NCBI GenBank assembly: GCA_016192915.1
Contig: JACPTF010000010.1
Coordinates: forward strand, 48,804 to 112,803
DNA length: 64,000 bases
DNA from: Candidatus Woesearchaeota archaeon
GTDB taxonomy: Archaea > Nanobdellota > Nanobdellia > Woesearchaeales > UBA10216
Reading direction: 5' to 3'
The notes under the pieces were generated by a model that saw only the letters and a list, made by a program, of their open reading frames with translations, ran no database searches and was not told where the DNA came from. Shown here one piece after another: positions 35,900 to 56,430 of the stretch. The position numbers were made by a program, and so were the translations under genes. Each line of letters opens with the position of its first letter. The first letter of the stretch is position 1.

Positions 35900-37250
35900 G
35901 ATACTCCGCCGCTTGCGGCGATTGAGTTGTTACGTTCCCGGAAACTTTTCGGAAAAAGCACTGGACACTGGACATGTGCCCGGCTAAGGTATTTATAGTT
36001 GTGCTTTTCTGTTGTTGTGTATGATTGGTCGTGCTGTTGCTAAGGTTAAAATCGTCGCTACCAATGAAGTGGTTGCTACTGTTAAGGCTTACGGTAAGGC
36101 TTTGCAGTTCTGCACTAACGCTGCTTGGAGTAACAGGATCAGGAATAATGTTAAGCTTCACCATGTCGTATATAGGGAGCTTAGAGAAACTTATAAGCTT
36201 CCTGCTCAACTTGCAGTTGCCTGTATTAAGCAGGCTTGTGGCATTGTCAAGAGGGCTAAGAGCAAGCCGGTAGTCAAGCGGGCTTCTGTAGGCTACAACT
36301 TCCCACGTTCCGCAAGTCTCAAAGGAAACGTTCTCAGCGTAGTTACACTGAGTGGTAGGCAGAAGTTCAACATCAACATACCTGCTTGCTATGTGGAATA
36401 CTTCAACAATTGGAAATTGACCGAGAGCCTCTTGCGTATCAATAGAAAAGGTAAATGTTTCTTCTTGTTTGGGTTTTCCAAAGAGGTTGCGACCATTAAC
36501 AAAGCTTCGCCAAAAAGTGTTCTTGGCGTTGACCTGGGAGTCAACAACCTCGCTGTCACGAGTGATGGTAGGTTCTACCACTCGCCCAAAGTCAAACAAA
36601 TTAAGAGGAGGTTTAAGCATTTGCGTTCTGTTCTTCAGGCTAAAGGCACTCGCTCTGCCAAGCGGCTTCTTAGGAAGCTGAGTGGAAGGGAGCAACGGTT
36701 TATGGCTTGGGTTAACCACAACGTCAGCAAGAGCATCGTTTCCGATTTTGACGGTGGAAAGGTAGTGTTGGAAAACCTCAAAGGAATACGGAAAGCCAAT
36801 CGTGGAAAGCGTATGAACTCCTGGATAAGCAACTGGAGCTTTTTCCAGCTTCAAAGCTTCATCCAATACAAAGCCGAGCGCGTAGGTGTGGAAGTGGTCA
36901 GGGTTAAGCCTGCCTTCACGTCCAAGCTGTGCCACAAGTGCGGCTTGCTCGGCACTCGCAAATCCGGTTGTTTCTCTTGTTCCCATTGTGGTCTTTCCTC
37001 ATACAGCGCAGACCTTAACGCTGCGCGAAATCTCGCTCATCCCAAGCTGGACGAGCGACAGGCTGTCGTAAACCAGCCGAACGTTTCAAGCTATGAAGCC
37101 AAAGCACCTTTATCGGTGAACTTGAAGGCTGAGCTTAGAGGCAATGCCCCACCGCTTGCGGTGAATGGGTAAGTTTACTTTTTCCTCACTGCACTAAGCC
37201 ACATCATGGTAGACAAGATAACCGTAATAGTGAAAACAGCCCAGACAGCA
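35900..37250 (+). mobile_element. IS200/IS605-family insertion sequence carrying tnpB only (IS1341-like). Boundaries are approximate.
   Basis: Single TnpB ORF with no tnpA. The flanks interrupt the local gene context. Confidence 0.6.
36012..37172 (+). CDS. tnpB: TnpB (IS605 OrfB) RNA-guided nuclease-like transposon protein
   Basis: RuvC-I GVDLGVNNLAVTSDG, a RuvC-II/III region, and C-terminal zinc finger CHKCG...CSHCG. 386 aa. Confidence 0.85.
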   Translation: MLCMIGRAVAKVKIVATNEVVATVKAYGKALQFCTNAAWSNRIRNNVKLHHVVYRELRETYKLPAQLAVACIKQACGIVKRAKSKPVVKRASVGYNFPRSASLKGNVLSVVTLSGRQKFNINIPACYVEYFNNWKLTESLLRINRKGKCFFLFGFSKEVATINKASPKSVLGVDLGVNNLAVTSDGRFYHSPKVKQIKRRFKHLRSVLQAKGTRSAKRLLRKLSGREQRFMAWVNHNVSKSIVSDFDGGKVVLENLKGIRKANRGKRMNSWISNWSFFQLQSFIQYKAERVGVEVVRVKPAFTSKLCHKCGLLGTRKSGCFSCSHCGLSSYSADLNAARNLAHPKLDERQAVVNQPNVSSYEAKAPLSVNLKAELRGNAPPLAVNG

Positions 37251-41644: not shown

Positions 41645-41760
41645 AGCCCCTGGCGAGAGTTGAACTCGCGGCCTACTGCTATTTCTTCCTTTTTGGTCAA
41701 GCTTTTTGCTTGCAAAAAGGTTGTACGAAGCAGTCGCTCTGGCCACTGAGCTACAGGGGC
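41645..41760 (-). tRNA. tRNA-Thr(CGT) with a ~43-nt intron at the canonical position
   Basis: Reverse complement reads GCCCCTG-TA-GCTC..GAGC-G-ACTGC-TTCGTA-[intron with hairpin ctttttgc/gcaaaaag]-A-GCAGT-AGGCC-GCGAG-TTCAACT-CTCGC-CAGGGGC-T, followed by TTTT. Confidence 0.7.
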
Positions 41761-41952: not shown

Positions 41953-42602
41953 AAGCACATGTTGCTGATGGCAATTTTATAAATCTTTGCCGCTGCTGTA
42001 AAAAGAGGGGGGCGCCGCAGCCGGGAATCTCATCCGGCTCTGCAGCCAGATTTTGAACCCGGATGAAGTTCGGGAAAACTTCACCAGTTTTTCAAACAGG
42101 CGCAATAACCTGATTCTGCCACCGCGGCAACTCCCATTTTACACTTACCATCAATTCTTGATATGCTTATCGCCTGGATTTACGGAAATTTTACGTCAAA
42201 GTGGTAATTCTTTCCGTCTATTCCGTGAATTTTTTGCATTTTCTGCAATTTGACGGAAATTTTTCCTTTGCCCCGCAATTTTTCTGGCTGTGTTGGGTGT
42301 CCAATAGGGTGCTTTCAAGTTAAGTGGCAAAGCCGACTTTGGTGCTGCGCACTTCCTTTCCCTCCCCTACGCTTAGCGTGGGGAGAGGAAAGCAACCCAA
42401 ATGCAGTTTGGGCAAAGTCGGCAACAAAAGACACCTAACTTGGCATTATCGTCCAATAGAAAAGATTAAATAGTAGAAGAAGGATTCAATAGTCAAGAAG
42501 TTCGGGAAAGCTGAAACATTAATCTGGTTCTGTCTTTTTTCTTTTTTTCGGGTACAGCTTCGGCGAAACTAATAAATACCCGGTTATCTGAGAGCAAAGG
42601 CA

Positions 42603-48780: not shown

Positions 48781-49094
48781 CAAGAAGATTATTCTCACTG
48801 AGCAGGTTATAAATCTTTTGGAATGGAAAAAGAAAGAAAAGGCAGAATCCGATACCTGCCTTGCGACGCCCACCCGTCAATATTTCGTTATTAACACTAG
48901 CTGATATTTAAAACTTTTGATTTCCGAATTTATTGCCGTGAAAATCTTTCATTTTATCCATAGAATGTCCGGAAAATCTTCATCTTTTCGCAAGATTTCG
49001 GGTTGTTACTGAGTATCTTACAACATTTCCAAAAACTTTTCAGCTTTTCTGGGGCAAAGGTTATCAAAACTTAAAAAGCAGTAGTGTTGGGACT

Positions 49095-49250
49095 GCCGCG
49101 GATGCAGAAACTGGTACAATTCCGCTATGCGGAATGTACAATCGGCCGCTGCCGATTTGTATCTGCGCCAGCCTCAGAAGCTGGTGACGGGCCCACCCGT
49201 CATGCGGGTTCAAAACAAGTCCATGGTTTGTGAGATTCCCGCCCGCGGCG
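49095..49250 (+). tRNA. Candidate tRNA-Leu(CAG) with non-canonical introns (D-loop region and T-loop). The exact exon boundaries are unresolved.
   Basis: Acceptor GCCGCGG...CCGCGGC. Anticodon arm CCAGC-CTCAGAA-GCTGG. Long variable arm GACGGG-CCCA-CCCGTC. T stem GCGGG/CCCGC separated by a 29-nt 'loop' that contains an insert. About 45 extra nt between the acceptor and the anticodon stem form a strong hairpin (GTACAATTCCGC/GCGGAATGTAC). Confidence 0.4.
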
Positions 49251-49363
49251 TCCCTGATTCAATTCAAGAACAATATTTTTAAACCGCCAGCAGCCACTTT
49301 CTTGGTTGACCTATTGGAAAGGATCGTCCGTTTTGGGATTGACCACTTTCGCAAAGGGGTCAC

Positions 49364-49493
49364 GCGTCGGTGGTCTAACGGCATGACCTCAGCCTTCCAC
49401 ACAACCTTCTTTGGTGCGGCAAAGAAGCTTGACCAAGAAATCCACAGGTTGTAAAGAAAGCTGATGGTCCGGGTTCAATTCCCGGCCGACGCA
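49364..49493 (+). tRNA. tRNA-Gly(TCC) with a ~57-nt intron at or near the canonical position
   Basis: GCGTCGG-TG-GTC..GAC-C-TCAGC-CTTCCA-[intron with ACAACCT/AGGTTGT and cttctttg/caaagaag helices]-GCTGA-TGGT-CCGGG-TTCAATT-CCCGG-CCGACGC-A. Confidence 0.7.
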
Positions 49494-52410: not shown

Positions 52411-55400
52411 TTAAACGACCTCAACCTCTTTTCTCCTGATGGCCTTTTTCAGCCACTCGCTCCACTCGAAGAGGATGCGCTTGTTGTCGTATGAGCCCAG
52501 CTCATCCTTTACCTCCTCAGCCAACTTGTGGAACTCGTCATTCGCCTGCACGACAAAAGGCGCTTCAAGCAGCTCATTCTGGCCTGTCTTATCAGCAGCA
52601 TCCACCACGGCCTCCTTAATCTGGGCACGGAGCAGGACGTTGTCCCAGACAGCGTCCCAGCTTCCGGCCCAGTCCTTCACATTCGCCGCAATGGACTTCA
52701 GGACATCACTTTCGCCATTAAGCAAGTCAATGGTTGGCTCGAGCTGGTCTGACTTTGAATCGTACTTCATCAGGTCCTTGAAGCCCTTCTCCAGCAGCGG
52801 GTCATTCTCCCAGTATTTTCCCACCTCAGTAATCTGGGTTAACCTGCGCCAGCGGTGAAGCCCGTCAGGGGTCCTAATCGGATTAGCAACAACAATGACA
52901 TCGGTTGCCTTGAATGATGTCCTGGGCACCCTTAAGTCGTTAACGACCCTGTCGAAAACACCGTAAGGGCTGTCGCCGTGAATGGTGCCTGCAACGACAT
53001 TGGCAAGAGCTCCCACTCTCATGGCCTCGTAAAGTGCAGCAGCCTCAACCGACCTCACCTCACCGATGATTAGGCAGCTGTCGCCCATTCTAAGAGTTGA
53101 CCTTATGCCCTCGTCAGCGGAAACTTCTGTAGTGCCCTTTGTCAGTGCCGAAGCAACTTTCATTGACTGGATGTTGTAGTTAAGCTGCTTCAGTGCTGCA
53201 ACAGGTAATTCTAGAGTGTTGTGAGCTACAATATTATCGCAGACAAAGCTCTCGCATTCAGGTACAGATAGGTCGTATACCCAGCCATCATGTTCTTGCA
53301 TTGAAATTTCCCTGACTTCATCCCAAAATATGTCAGATTGTGCCAGAATTGAAAGGTTCTCAGACAACTCACATGGCAATTGATTTGTTTGCAGTATGCT
53401 AACAAGCCTGGTTTGCCCTATGTCGTTATCTCTAATCACATAGTCATGAAAGTTAAATTTTGGAATCATATCCCATAAATCCTCTTTTGTTCCAAGTGAT
53501 AGCGGGATTATGTCTGTTGTATCGTGCGTGCTTGTTTTGCTGCACAATAAGTCAACTTTCTGGTTTTTATAATGCTGCAAGAAGCCAATATTATCCCTGA
53601 AATTCTTCCATGATTTCAATGAACTTATGCCCGCATTGTAGGTGCCATCACTTCTTTTCTTGCCAATCCTGAAAACTATGTCATATGCGGATAAAAGAAA
53701 TTGTATGTCTTTTAGCAAGGCGGCTGAGGCCATCGGAATTACAATCTCCTTATCCGCAGCGCAGCCATCACCAGTGAAAATACCGTTAAGCACAAAGGCA
53801 ATCTGCTCCCTGGATAATTGATAAATCCATGCGGGCAGACGCTTGGTGTAGGAATTACCTTTCAGCTCAAATAGCTCTGCCATGCAAGCTTTGAGGGTTT
53901 TAGAATTAAGCTGGAGTGAAAATCCGTCAGAATGCATCTTTACCGGTATTCCGAATTTCTTCCCTACACTATGCACCACTGCTCTATCCTCTTCGTCAAC
54001 AGCAGAGATGATTACTGACATTTGGTCGTAGCAACCATCCGCTATCCATAACCCCACAAATGTAAGAAACTCCTTATCAAGCGACATTTTGGCAGGCAAA
54101 GAAAAAGTCGAACGCCTGCCCACCTTAAAAAAGATTTTTCCATCACCAATCCGATAACCTGCAGAGATTAGTTTCCCCACAATCTTGCCTGGAAGCATCC
54201 CTTTCCTTATCCAATATTGAATAACCTGTTTTCCATAGCCTTGTTTCTCTCCAAGCTTTTTGATATCTGCCCTATGCTGCTGTGCAAAATTCATGACTGC
54301 CTCTCCAAAGATATAGCTTTCTTCAAGCCCTAAAATCTTGGGAAGTAAATCGATTTCTGGCAGCTCCTTGTTGGCAAGTTCAATATGTCTGGGCACAGAA
54401 ATGTGGCTGCCTGGTTGAAGCTCCTTTACCTTGGCTTCTTCTATTTGGCCAGTTTCACCTACAGTAAACAGAGAATGGTCGCCTGTAACCCTAATTGTCC
54501 TGCCTGTTCTTGTCTTCACAGTGAATAGCGGCTTGTTTACCTTATGTCTTATGAAATTACTGACTCTGCTAAGAACAATCTTGCCTTGCTTATCCATGGC
54601 GTATATCTCAATTTTTTCTGGATTTCCGGCCACTTCGTGGTCTGAAAGGTTGTAATAGCTTCCGTGCTTGGTTATATTGCTATCCACAAGTTCTCCTATG
54701 GTTGTTCGCTCATAGGTGCCATTTCGCCTAATAATGAGTTCACTATCGCCAGCAACGCTATCCTCTAGTGAGATCATACGATATTTCCTCATTATCTCAA
54801 CCATGACGGAGCCGAGCACTGATGTTTTTCCGGCAGACCTTGTGCCGGCAACGAGCATTGTCCTGGAGCCGTCAATGAGGAAGCTGAGAAGCCCTGCTGA
54901 AAGGGGAGTCATCATCCTCTGCTTTATGAAGAGGGGAAAGGTCCACGGCTTGTCCCTGTGCCGACGGAAAGCATAAGCAAGGCCGTTTGGGTTCAGGGGC
55001 TCACCGACGACGGCTACCCTTGCCCTGGCTCCCGGAACAAGCAGCTCTGTGTCCAGTATTGGATTGGCCTCGTCCAAAGGCCTTCCGGACATCAGCCTCA
55101 GCTTGGTAGCCCAGGAATCAGCATCGCTCGAAGTGGGAATAATGTTTGTCATGCAATCATCATAATCCTGGTGCACGATAAAGAGCGGCTGCCTTCCCAT
55201 GGGGCTGTTGGCTGTTATGTCCTGGATTTTATCGTCCTTGAGCAAGACCTCAACAAGGCCAAATCCGATAGTATACCTGACAAGCACTTCAGCGAGCTCC
55301 TCAACCTCCTTAGTGCGGAGCTTGAGCTGCTTCTGGTCAGCGAGCTCCTCAATTAAATCGCTGCCTACGTTAAAGAACACCTGCCTGACCCTTTCAGGGT

Positions 55401-56235
55401 CAATGAACTCGCTTCTTGTTGGCTTATGCTCTGAGATCACCCTTTTGGCCAAATCGAGAAGCTCATACTTGTCTTCGGTAAGCTTGAATTCCGGAGGCAC
55501 AACATGGTAAAGGTACTGGACCGTAGAGGGAAGCTTGAACAAGGTAATGTCAGCCCCCTCAACAGTGTAGCTGTCAATTTCCTCGCCATCCTGTGGGAAG
55601 GCAGCCATGAGCCTGGTGAACATGAAATCAGGCTTTGCAAGAGGGTTAAAGACAAAATGATAAATGCCCCTGTTGCCTTCCTTGTAATCCTGCAGGTGAG
55701 GCTTTGCCTTCAGCATCAGCTCGGTTTTTTCAAGCGCGTTAAGAAGCGACTCAACAAGCTGAAGGTATCTGTCAGCTCCGGCAGCCTGCTGGGCAGCCCT
55801 TTCACTGGCAACCTTTTCCTCACGGTGCATCCTGCGAAGCTCAACATAAGCTGCAACAGGGTCATTCCTTAGCTTGTTGTAAACTATGTTCCTTATCTCA
55901 TAACTGCGCCTCTCCCCACTTGGGCCGGTAAAAACGCCGCCGAGCGAGGAAAGCGTAAAAAGAACCTGCTGCTTGATTATCTGATTGCGAAGCTTGCCTA
56001 TCTCTGCAAGCATCCTGACCTGCCCATAATCGTACTCGTAATCCCTTTTTTGCGCAAAGACAACCCGGGTAATGCTTGGGTTTTCAACCAGCTTGTCAAT
56101 AACGGCAGACATGCAAACAGTGCTGTCCTCGATTGAAGGGAAAAAGGGGAAGGCCTCTGCATCTATTCTTAAGACTAGGTCCTCGCCCTCCTTGTACGTC
56201 TCGTAACTAAAATAGTCCCCTCTTTTTTCAGGCAT
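52411..56235 (-). CDS. FlaI/VirB11/PilB-family secretion ATPase interrupted by a 514-aa intein
   Basis: Walker A AGTRSAGKTS. The host motif ISLED|TLELPV is split by an insert that begins with S, ends with HN, and carries LAGLIDADG blocks (LTFVGLWIADGCYD, AFVLNGIFTGDGCA). The C-terminal extein has the ATPase His/Asp boxes. Confidence 0.85.
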   Translation of the reverse strand: MPEKRGDYFSYETYKEGEDLVLRIDAEAFPFFPSIEDSTVCMSAVIDKLVENPSITRVVFAQKRDYEYDYGQVRMLAEIGKLRNQIIKQQVLFTLSSLGGVFTGPSGERRSYEIRNIVYNKLRNDPVAAYVELRRMHREEKVASERAAQQAAGADRYLQLVESLLNALEKTELMLKAKPHLQDYKEGNRGIYHFVFNPLAKPDFMFTRLMAAFPQDGEEIDSYTVEGADITLFKLPSTVQYLYHVVPPEFKLTEDKYELLDLAKRVISEHKPTRSEFIDPERVRQVFFNVGSDLIEELADQKQLKLRTKEVEELAEVLVRYTIGFGLVEVLLKDDKIQDITANSPMGRQPLFIVHQDYDDCMTNIIPTSSDADSWATKLRLMSGRPLDEANPILDTELLVPGARARVAVVGEPLNPNGLAYAFRRHRDKPWTFPLFIKQRMMTPLSAGLLSFLIDGSRTMLVAGTRSAGKTSVLGSVMVEIMRKYRMISLEDSVAGDSELIIRRNGTYERTTIGELVDSNITKHGSYYNLSDHEVAGNPEKIEIYAMDKQGKIVLSRVSNFIRHKVNKPLFTVKTRTGRTIRVTGDHSLFTVGETGQIEEAKVKELQPGSHISVPRHIELANKELPEIDLLPKILGLEESYIFGEAVMNFAQQHRADIKKLGEKQGYGKQVIQYWIRKGMLPGKIVGKLISAGYRIGDGKIFFKVGRRSTFSLPAKMSLDKEFLTFVGLWIADGCYDQMSVIISAVDEEDRAVVHSVGKKFGIPVKMHSDGFSLQLNSKTLKACMAELFELKGNSYTKRLPAWIYQLSREQIAFVLNGIFTGDGCAADKEIVIPMASAALLKDIQFLLSAYDIVFRIGKKRSDGTYNAGISSLKSWKNFRDNIGFLQHYKNQKVDLLCSKTSTHDTTDIIPLSLGTKEDLWDMIPKFNFHDYVIRDNDIGQTRLVSILQTNQLPCELSENLSILAQSDIFWDEVREISMQEHDGWVYDLSVPECESFVCDNIVAHNTLELPVAALKQLNYNIQSMKVASALTKGTTEVSADEGIRSTLRMGDSCLIIGEVRSVEAAALYEAMRVGALANVVAGTIHGDSPYGVFDRVVNDLRVPRTSFKATDVIVVANPIRTPDGLHRWRRLTQITEVGKYWENDPLLEKGFKDLMKYDSKSDQLEPTIDLLNGESDVLKSIAANVKDWAGSWDAVWDNVLLRAQIKEAVVDAADKTGQNELLEAPFVVQANDEFHKLAEEVKDELGSYDNKRILFEWSEWLKKAIRRKEVEVV
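53218..54759 (-). mobile_element. Intein (with LAGLIDADG homing-endonuclease domain) within the FlaI-like ATPase gene
   Basis: N-terminal Ser, C-terminal VAHN followed by +1 Thr. Two dodecapeptide motifs. Removing it restores the contiguous P-loop ATPase motif ...RMISLEDTLELPV... Confidence 0.75.
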
Positions 56236-56360
56236 TTGTTAACCTCGTTTCCCACGTCGCTTTCAGGCGACGGGGCCCAATCGTGCCCTGCACGATTTGG
56301 GTTTGATTGACCTTTCCGCATCGCCTATTGCGATGGGACCAGTCGAGCGTATCTCGACTT
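56236..56360 (-). promoter_or_regulatory. Cluster of four consecutive stem-loops in the divergent intergenic region upstream of the ATPase gene
   Basis: CGTCGC-tttcag-GCGACG; CCCAATCGTGC-cct-GCACGATTTGGG; CCGCATCGC-ctatt-GCGATGGG; CCAGTCGAG-cgtat-CTCGACTTGG. Confidence 0.35.
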
Positions 56361-56430
56361 GGTTTGCGAAAAAGGTCATAGCAAACCTCTTTACAAAGCT
56401 ATTTATATAACTGCCGCTATTTATAGTTTT

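Follow-up and report, generated by a model that had tools for sequence, protein, structure and literature searches.

The tRNA-Leu(CAG) gene and its two interruptions

The 64,000-nucleotide (nt) stretch of contig JACPTF010000010.1 (assembly GCA_016192915.1) analyzed here, hereafter called the window, belongs to a member of Candidatus Woesearchaeota (DPANN), a tiny groundwater archaeon, and carries at positions 49095-49250 of its forward strand a class II tRNA-Leu(CAG) gene located between pyrH and a tRNA-Gly gene. This gene is interrupted twice, and by two different kinds of sequence, namely a 22-nt intron in the T-loop and a 45-nt insert in the D-loop. The authenticity of the gene together with the T-loop intron forms a conclusion in which we place very high confidence.

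A first-pass annotation, made from the nucleotide sequence alone, had listed the parts of the cloverleaf, all of which were recovered: the acceptor strands GCCGCGG (at 49095) and CCGCGGC (at 49243) with complementarity at 7 of 7 positions, the anticodon arm CCAGC-CTCAGAA-GCTGG (at 49168), the long variable arm of the leucine type GACGGG-CCCA-CCCGTC (at 49186), the T stem strands GCGGG (at 49204) and CCCGC (at 49238), and a T-loop of 29 nt. The raw, unspliced stretch of 157 nt folded into a cloverleaf with inserts at -76.6 kcal/mol (z = -5.7), and none of 200 shuffled sequences folded as well. Once the two inserts (about 45 nt in the D-loop and about 22 nt in the T-loop) had been removed in silico, a tRNA-Leu(cag) was called by ARAGORN over a wide range of junctions, and the call survived up to 115-120% of the default threshold, the same range as that of a tRNA-Cys control. 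The proposed tRNA-Leu(CAG) identity was upheld by the cloverleaf fold, by these calls and by the orthologues described below. No intron was present at the canonical position 37/38 of this gene, and a split or permuted tRNA gene was ruled out, as the 156 nt contain all parts in one piece and in the usual order. The coordinates of all features are compiled in Table 1.

Conservation in related genomes and leucine identity

The UMP kinase encoded by the adjacent pyrH shares 100% identity with a protein annotated as UMP kinase of a Candidatus Woesearchaeota archaeon. Contigs encoding PyrH homologues were fetched and two scans with exon patterns were performed, yielding the loci of relatives designated L003 to L017. 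The gene order pyrH, tRNA-Leu, tRNA-Gly is syntenic, and an intact orthologue of the tRNA-Leu gene was detected in six other assemblies, comprising L003, L004, L009 and L012 with the anticodon CAG as well as L011 and L013 with the anticodon loop CUAAGAA. The exons of the orthologues align with those of the window gene and the stem of the variable arm covaries, with GAUGG/CCAUC in L003, GACGA/GUUGUC in L004 and also GAGGG/CCCUC replacing the GACGGG/CCCGUC of the window. Since the exons align across the orthologues with such compensatory changes, the tRNA-Leu gene can be regarded as real and conserved. One scan each of genome and metagenome collections with exon patterns returned only the contig of L003, L009 and one unrelated match, so that these scans revealed no closer relative with the D-loop insert. 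The loop of L011 and L013 specifies the anticodon AAG, with A34, in two independent assemblies; to our knowledge, an A34 anticodon is not expected in archaea.

The flanking sequences of the gene are conserved as well. The TATA-like sequence AAAGGTTATCAAAAC, located about 25 nt upstream of tRNA base 1, has equally spaced counterparts in the orthologues (AAAGGTTATCAAGAC in L003, AAAAGTTATCAAGAC in L004 and L012) and is a candidate promoter on the basis of this conservation. The leader strand GGGAC can pair with the trailer GUCCC (49250-49254), by which the acceptor helix is extended past a bulged U. This pairing is kept at all seven loci, in most of them as GGGAC/GUCCC and with small variants in L003, L011 and L013; an A-to-G change in L011 and L013 preserves it as a G-U pair. 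A run of five T residues inside the conserved motif ATATTTTTAAAC is found at all orthologous loci and likely represents the terminator of the tRNA-Leu gene and/or the TATA box of the downstream tRNA-Gly gene.

The leucine identity of the tRNA deserves consideration, as A8 (49102) in place of the usual U8 and G73 (49250) in place of the usual A73 are conserved in the window gene and in all orthologues. The anticodon CAG was nevertheless taken to mean leucine despite G73, because the 11 CUG codons of pyrH all fall in columns that are occupied mainly by leucine or other non-polar residues among 120 homologues, leucine being the commonest residue in 10 columns and valine in one. A reassignment of CUG to serine, a reading prompted by G73 and the long variable arm, was rejected, as serine was not common in any of these 11 columns.

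With respect to the fate of the locus in other relatives, the tRNA-Leu gene is truncated in L005 and L006 as well as in L016 and L017, absent from L007 and L015 and replaced in L014. The gene thus looks dispensable; a tRNA-Leu(UAG), which was not seen in the window, could in principle read CUG codons. A split-tRNA organization of L005/L006 and L016/L017 was considered and discarded, deletions being the better explanation. In L016 and L017 the tRNA promoter is joined straight to the variable arm, and in L005 and L006 a tRNA-Leu-like relic is fused to the T arm of the tRNA, apparently through a recombination between the two in which the 5' half of the gene was lost. Such a relic, consisting of a D arm and a variable arm (GGCAGAAUCCGAUACCUGCC UUGC GACGCCCACCCGUCA), is located on the forward strand of the window at 48838-48880, about 70 nt upstream of the pyrH start, and occupies the same place in all loci.

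A strict bulge-helix-bulge intron in the T-loop

The T-loop had been proposed to contain an insert of about 22 nt, and this proposal proved correct: a 22-nt intron with a strict bulge-helix-bulge (BHB) motif of the form hBHBh' is located at position 59/60, and the motif is conserved and covaries in nine genes. The junction suggested earlier, TTC↓GATT (arrows denote cleavage sites), is three bases off, since the strict motif yields UUCAAA↓ and ↓U and thereby a mature loop UUCAAAU and not UUCGAUU. The geometry of the motif was set by the canonical 31:39 rule of 37/38 introns, according to which the second base of the 3' exon is paired with the one lying six positions before the 5' cut. In this register the T-loop motif comprises a central helix with 4 of 4 pairs, an outer helix of 5 bp that is formed by the T stem, an inner helix of 6 bp and the bulges AA↓A and AU↓U. 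A strict BHB scan of the whole precursor tRNA returned this intron as the sole acceptable motif, all other matches with 4 of 4 pairs being such that essential arms would be deleted. Excision leaves a normal 7-nt loop, and forcing the BHB fold costs only +2.7 kcal/mol.

The BHB alignment included the window tRNA-Leu gene, five intact orthologues, the truncated copy of L005, a second class II tRNA gene of the window and the tRNA-Arg(UCU) gene. Throughout these nine genes the central helix has 4 of 4 pairs and both bulges have 3 nt, while the intron sequences are unrelated. In the trimmed alignment 92.9% of the cells were paired and 7 of the 14 pairs were changed on both sides; none of 500 shuffled alignments reached the observed percentage of pairing or the covariation score, and slid registers paired only to 31-54%. 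Position 59/60 is a documented site of non-canonical tRNA introns (PMC4090602).

While structure and conservation of the motif were observed directly, cutting and joining would follow from the established behaviour of BHB motifs. Cleavage by the archaeal splicing endonuclease would fall behind the second base of both 3-nt bulges, and ligation of the exons by an RNA ligase would regenerate the UUCAAAU loop. A Pfam scan of 49 open reading frames of the window revealed neither a splicing endonuclease gene nor an RtcB ligase gene.

Structure of the D-loop insert and search for splicing motifs

The about 45 extra nucleotides noted previously between the acceptor and the anticodon stem were resolved by alignment with the orthologues as a 45-nt insert in the D-loop, the boundaries of which can slide by up to 3 nt to the left (49114-49158 to 49117-49161) owing to a repeated GUA. 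The D arm of the window gene reads GCAG-AAACUGGUA(45 nt)U-CUGC, and the insert-free arms of the relatives read GCAG-AAAAUUGGUAU-CUGC (L003), GCAG-AAUUCGUAU-CUGC (L004, L009 and L012) and GCAG-AAACCGGUAG-CUGC (L011 and L013). The hairpin described in the first-pass annotation was found with its arms GTACAATTCCGC at 49114 and GCGGAATGTAC at 49129, as was the GTACAAT direct repeat at 49114 and 49136, with a distance of 22 nt. This first hairpin extends over 49114-49139 (GUACA-A-UUCCGC UAU GCGGAA UGUAC) and is followed by a second one that had escaped notice (AAUCGGC CGCU GCCGAUU, 49140-49157), whose outer pairs extend to 49136-49162. The D-loop insert is accordingly predicted to fold as a very stable two-hairpin dumbbell.

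The further expectation that the D-loop insert is a BHB intron was not borne out, because no strict BHB was detected in it by the strict scan or by exhaustive one- and two-step relaxed searches, and the relaxed forms that exist are weak and energetically costly. In the first relaxed candidate, an hBH motif, the D stem serves as outer helix and the central helix has 3 of 4 pairs, which defines an intron at 49115-49160 and a product D-loop AAACUGGAU. The second candidate concerns the first hairpin unit and combines a GUAC/GUAC central helix of 4 of 4 pairs and the bulge AA↓U with a 3-bp outer helix that competes with the second hairpin. The third candidate is a tandem HBh' arrangement with a 12-nt product D-loop AAACUGGUACAA. 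Some of the candidate cuts keep the 4-bp stem intact and lead to D-loops of 9-12 nt, whereas a strict-geometry cut at the GUAC helices leaves just two D-stem pairs. In constrained folding, all BHB-like conformers of the D-loop were +12.4 to +15.9 kcal/mol above the minimum-energy fold, and a central helix of 3 of 4 pairs was calculated to arise by chance in about 15% of cases when the register is fixed by the D stem. The GTACAAT repeat twice resembles a central-helix strand plus bulge, but its origin lies in the outer stems of the two hairpins, which are palindromic.

A dispersed family of double-hairpin repeats

Very likely, the D-loop insert is a copy of a dispersed repeat that lacks a proper BHB. 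Four copies, namely the window D-loop insert, one in an intron of tRNA-Arg(UCU) and two inserts of L009, aligned in one orientation with 71% column identity and were used to build the covariance model R1, with which 129 kb were searched. This model detected three more copies (E = 3e-5 to 4e-4), one upstream of tRNA-Thr in L012 and two in the window at 56249-56304 and 56313-56366. The model R2, built from the four copies of R1 and these three, scored its seven copies with 52-66 bits and added two new ones, in the tRNA-Gly leader of L005 (E = 4e-6) and at 16034-16090 of the window (E = 7e-6). The D-loop insert itself obtained 62.7 and 58.8 bits in the repeat covariance models. In total, nine copies were identified in the 129 kb, five of them in the window, on both strands.

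Pairwise comparisons are in accordance with this relationship. The second hairpin of the D-loop insert matches positions 13188-13208, within the 37/38 intron of tRNA-Arg(UCU), at 20 of 21 positions in inverted and at 16 of 21 positions in direct orientation, and the first hairpin has a near copy at 15995-16014, which is the first hairpin of a four-hairpin array. The stems of the repeat vary by compensatory changes (AAUCGGC, AGUCGGC, AAUCGC, AGUCGAC, AAUCGUGC and AGUCGAG). In L009, a 44-nt extra insert at the 3' edge of the T-loop intron and a 48-nt insert in the 3' trailer show the same two-hairpin layout, and a BHB search in the enlarged T-loop and in the trailer insert yielded nothing convincing.

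The copies reside in tRNA introns, leaders and trailers, in a 3' untranslated region and in intergenic DNA, and they occur in both orientations; among the copies found, none was seen inside a coding sequence. The occupation of individual sites differs among relatives, as is evident for the D-loop (window versus the six orthologues), the T-loop and trailer (L009 versus L012) and the tRNA-Thr leader (L012 versus window). As the repeat is also present in intergenic DNA and in inverted orientation, it was not shaped for splicing. Copies within coding sequence would be expected of a self-excising element, and the pattern found, with no such copy, is unlike that of one. The distribution suggests that the repeat spread at the DNA level and survived where it was harmless, rather than being an endonuclease-built element or one that excises itself as RNA.

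A target-site duplication model, with the arrangement GUA-unit-GUA-unit-GUA in the window and GCG in L009, was rejected, as it fits two copies only and the palindromic outer stems provide the better explanation. The four-hairpin array (15985-16100, forward strand, z = -8.2) is located downstream of the gene for ribosomal protein L11 and holds the copy at 16034-16090. The two tandem copies at 56249-56366 on the forward strand are intergenic and located upstream of a large ATPase gene, the second being nested in a GACCUUU...AAAGGUC hairpin. An ATPase-like open reading frame of 1274 aa occupies 52411-56235 on the reverse strand, and its translation appears to include a large internal insert with the ending ...VAHNT, possibly an intein. 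Genes of the IS200/IS605 type exist in this clade: a TnpB-like gene with OrfB_IS605 and Cas12f-like TNB domains is located at 36021-37172 (forward strand) and flanked at both ends by CCGC...GCGG hairpins, and a Y1 transposase gene (412-876) adjoins pyrH in L015, where the tRNA genes are missing. The end hairpins of the TnpB element had no clear similarity to the repeat.

Bacterial REP, BIME and REPIN sequences are short imperfect palindromes that often occur in pairs or arrays and are mobilised by Y1 (RAYT) transposases. The repeat described here is like them in that its hairpin units of 20-25 nt are found alone, in pairs and in a four-hairpin array, are dispersed over non-coding DNA in both orientations and show compensatory stem changes. 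It differs from them in its archaeal host, in its strong association with tRNA genes and in the lack of a linked RAYT-like gene, the TnpB of the window and the Y1 transposase of L015 being the available leads. The link to these bacterial elements may accordingly be described as a resemblance.

The fate of the D-loop insert

Taken as a whole, the account given here, combining a real gene, a T-loop intron and a repeat-derived D-loop insert with the fates weighed below, appears to us on balance probable. The D-loop insert would have arrived as a DNA-level insertion of the dispersed double-hairpin repeat. For the present state of the gene, we lean, at about even odds, towards the proposition that the insert is not removed precisely and that the copy in the window is a recently crippled, dispensable gene. 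In favour of this proposition, the insert has no credible BHB, its family is not specific to introns and the gene is dispensable in relatives.

A number of observations weigh against this account. The unspliced sequence was called neither by ARAGORN nor by the Rfam tRNA model (RF00005), even at E <= 10. This result is expected because of the two non-canonical inserts, and the missing match to RF00005 says little, since the model, with which only the unspliced sequence was scored, cannot represent inserts in the D- and T-loops. The textbook identity and core bases of leucine tRNAs include the discriminator A73 and U8, which G73 and A8 fail to match throughout the lineage. Concerning a crippled gene in particular, no damage is seen in the promoter-like sequence, in any of the exon stems or in the T-loop BHB, and CUG ranks second among the leucine codons of the window (346 of 1289, or 27%). 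Moreover, the twofold GUAC-AAU allows the first hairpin unit to form a central helix of 4 of 4 pairs together with one proper 3-nt bulge. L009 and L012 have identical exons although L009 carries two repeat copies in or beside the gene, and their introns differ at 4 of 22 positions, which hints that such inserts can be tolerated. In addition, many disrupted tRNA genes are found together with L3-loop endonucleases in DPANN archaea, and the Methanopyrus kandleri tRNA-Glu(UUC) gene has a relaxed D-loop intron that is cleaved in vitro (both PMC5829648).

The latter points lead to the alternative, which we regard as a tentative possibility, that both inserts are true introns and that the gene is fully functional, the D-loop insert being excised, either whole as a 45/46-nt intron or in two tandem introns of about 20-23 nt each, by a broad-specificity DPANN endonuclease acting on relaxed hBH or HBh' motifs. 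The three relaxed candidates described above provide possible substrates, and all their products were called tRNA-Leu(cag) by ARAGORN. D-loop introns at position 20/21 are known (PMC4090602), and the relaxed D-loop intron of M. kandleri tRNA-Glu(UUC) was removed in vitro efficiently by the Aeropyrum pernix enzyme and weakly by its own (PMC5829648). The intact exons and promoter and the heavy use of CUG would likewise be accounted for. However, every BHB-like fold of the D-loop is penalized by +12 to +16 kcal/mol versus the +2.7 of the T-loop motif, the 3/4 central helix has the chance probability of about 15% given above, and the product of the strict-geometry GUAC cut has a broken D stem. The occurrence of the same repeat in intergenic DNA and in inverted orientation, as well as the absence of coding sequence among the sites of the copies found, argue in the same direction.

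It is unlikely that the mature tRNA retains the 45 nt as an enlarged D-loop, with the insert projecting from the elbow of a still working molecule. The insert follows G18, G19 and U20, where the D-loop is variable, and forms a compact two-hairpin unit that leaves all four arms intact in the minimum-energy fold, but the ribosome and processing enzymes make contact with the elbow, the six orthologues have no insert, and no cytoplasmic tRNA with a D-loop enlarged by 45 nt is known to us. A chance cloverleaf or a relic, for instance the attachment-site remnant of an integrated element, would agree with the missing ARAGORN and Rfam calls on the raw sequence and with the real tRNA-Leu-like relic nearby, but this explanation is effectively refuted by the four perfect arms with z = -5.7, the conserved and covarying T-loop BHB, and the orthologues in six assemblies with compensatory changes and a conserved promoter and terminator.

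A more speculative and rather improbable extension concerns the birth of introns. Hairpin repeats of about 20-25 nt might spread as DNA through tRNA loci, that is, through leaders, trailers, introns and occasionally exons, and a copy whose palindromic ends by chance provide a central helix and bulges together with the adjoining exon (in the present case by way of the doubled GUAC-AAU) might be spliced by a permissive endonuclease and thereby become a new non-canonical intron. If so, a concrete mechanism would be at hand for the unexplained gain or "transposition" of archaeal tRNA introns. If the D-loop insert is left unspliced, it represents an ordinary yet instructive knock-out of a dispensable isoacceptor.

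Comparison with known disrupted tRNA genes

The T-loop intron and the general architecture of the tRNA-Leu(CAG) gene are members of a well-known kind, the multi-intron tRNA genes of archaea, from which the D-loop insert departs by its lack of a usable BHB and its origin from a dispersed repeat. A case in point is the tRNA-Pro(UGG) gene of Pyrobaculum islandicum, whose introns occupy 25/26, 37/38 and 56/57 (Sugahara et al. 2007, 2008, as cited in PMC4090602). As in the multi-intron tRNA genes of Crenarchaeota and Thermoproteales, the interruptions in the window gene occupy non-canonical sites (59/60 and D-loop 20/21 being both published, PMC4090602), the T-loop contains the same BHB motif and the gene is missed by standard finders. 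In contrast to these genes, the host is a DPANN archaeon, a 37/38 intron is absent and the D-loop insert has no convincing relaxed BHB. The tRNA-Glu(UUC) gene of M. kandleri (Kaneta et al. 2018, PMC5829648) likewise combines a D-loop insert with a second intron in one precursor; however, its HBh' intron has one well-formed bulge and both flanking helices, whereas the best central helix of the window insert has 3 of 4 pairs and a large energy penalty.

Transposed tRNA introns of archaea are another relevant group: near-identical short sequences at different tRNA positions, with fast gain and loss and a proposed spread at the DNA level, were described in work from 2010, as cited in PMC4090602. 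The repeat described here shares with them the near-identity of its units, the rapid gain and loss between relatives and the proposed spread at the DNA level. It is unlike them, as they are presented in PMC4090602, in that those introns are bounded by a BHB and located within tRNA genes, while the repeat unit is a double hairpin without a BHB of its own that occurs in both orientations and also outside tRNA genes. The repeat family of the D-loop insert offers a testable candidate source of non-canonical archaeal tRNA introns.

Kaneta et al. (2018) included a Woesearchaeota genome in their analysis, reported incomplete tRNA sets in some newly sequenced DPANN lineages and predicted that disrupted tRNA genes had remained undetected (PMC5829648). 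The tRNA-Leu(CAG), tRNA-Arg(UCU) and tRNA-Ala(CGC) genes of the window are examples of these. In the window, four tRNA genes out of seven were overlooked or wrongly modelled by standard tools, which is the gap described for newly sequenced DPANN genomes in that study; for these organisms, tRNA complements are understated, and with them the estimates of codon capacity and of completeness. Additionally, introns at 37/38, at 59/60 and in the D-loop differ between close relatives, so that intron turnover is fast and can be traced stepwise.

Other tRNA genes of the window

The richness in tRNA introns that had been suggested for this DNA was substantiated by the finding that six of the seven tRNA genes of the window carry introns (Table 1). 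Of the seven, the tRNA-Cys, tRNA-Thr and tRNA-Gly genes were called by Rfam at the gathering score, three in all, and ARAGORN correctly called tRNA-Cys and mis-modelled the gene with the anticodon GAA. The tRNA-Arg, tRNA-Ala and tRNA-Leu(CAG) genes were found by neither ARAGORN nor Rfam at the gathering score.

Table 1. Coordinates of the tRNA-Leu(CAG) locus, the tRNA genes of the window and the copies of the double-hairpin repeat
Feature	Position	Strand	Remarks
Candidate promoter	49057-49071	+	TATA-like AAAGGTTATCAAAAC
Leader strand	49089-49093	+	GGGAC, pairable with trailer
Acceptor 5' strand	49095-49101	+	GCCGCGG, complementary to 49243-49249; followed by A8 U9 (49102-49103)
D stem 5' strand and exonic D-loop part	49104-49116	+	GCAG and AAACUGGUA; from alignment with insert-free orthologues
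D-loop insert	~49117-49161	+	45 nt, at about position 20a/21; absent from six orthologues; dispersed double-hairpin repeat copy
Last D-loop base, D stem 3' strand, G26	49162-49167	+	U, CUGC, G; from fold, orthologue alignment and ARAGORN
Anticodon arm	49168-49184	+	CCAGC-CUCAGAA-GCUGG; anticodon CAG at 49175-49177
Long variable arm (class II)	49185-49203	+	U, GACGGG-CCCA-CCCGUC, AU; from motif match and ARAGORN
T stem 5' strand and T-loop 54-59	49204-49214	+	GCGGG and UUCAAA; UUCA provides the exonic side of the BHB central helix
T-loop intron	49215-49236	+	22 nt, strict hBHBh', position 59/60; gcggg UUCA AA↓A caaguc ... gguuug UGAG AU↓U cccgc
U60, T stem 3' strand, acceptor 3' strand, discriminator	49237-49250	+	U, CCCGC, CCGCGGC, G73; CCA not encoded
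T5 run	49276-49280	+	within conserved ATATTTTTAAAC; likely terminator and/or TATA box of tRNA-Gly
tRNA-Arg(UCU)	13104-13347	+	introns 37/38 (107 nt) and 59/60 (62 nt)
tRNA-Cys(GCA)	13351-13422	+	no intron
tRNA-Ala(CGC)	15357-15472	-	intron 37/38
tRNA-Thr(CGU)	41645-41760	-	intron 37/38 (45 nt)
Class II tRNA, anticodon GAA	42014-42128	-	intron 59/60 (25 nt)
tRNA-Leu(CAG)	49095-49250	+	intron 59/60 (22 nt) and D-loop insert
tRNA-Gly(UCC)	49364-49493	+	intron 37/38 (61 nt)
Repeat copy	13183-13236	-	covariance models
Repeat copy	16034-16090	+	covariance models
Repeat copy	49113-49164	+	covariance models
Repeat copy	56249-56304	+	covariance models
Repeat copy	56313-56366	+	covariance models
Repeat copies outside the window			L005, L009 (two), L012; covariance models

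The tRNA-Arg(UCU) gene ends 3 nt before the tRNA-Cys gene and has two introns, one at 13143-13249 with the BHB strands CUUC UA↓A and GAAG AC↓A, which contains a copy of the double-hairpin repeat, and one at 13272-13333. The tRNA-Ala(CGC) gene is characterized by a G3-U70 pair and by an intron of about 45 nt. The 37/38 introns of the tRNA-Thr (41682-41726), tRNA-Gly (49401-49461), tRNA-Arg and tRNA-Ala (about 15385-15435) genes form one family with the layout ACAACCUUUU-hairpin-AAAAGCUUGACCAAA, and similar CCUUUU...AAAAGG hairpins are present in tRNA leaders and trailers of the window and of the loci L003 to L014.

The class II gene with the anticodon GAA has the anticodon loop UUGAAAA, with the phenylalanine anticodon, and resembles tRNA-Leu(CAG) in its acceptor stem and its 59/60 intron. 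After removal of the intron (42027-42051), ARAGORN called a tRNA-Phe(gaa) of 91 nt. A gene of the same kind is located upstream of pyrH in L014, and UUY codons occur at conserved Phe/Tyr positions. A tRNA with a phenylalanine anticodon and a body of the leucine or serine type is unusual. The intron content of the tRNA-Gly gene also varies among the relatives, as no intron is present in L011 and L016, while both a 37/38 and a 59/60 intron are present in L014.

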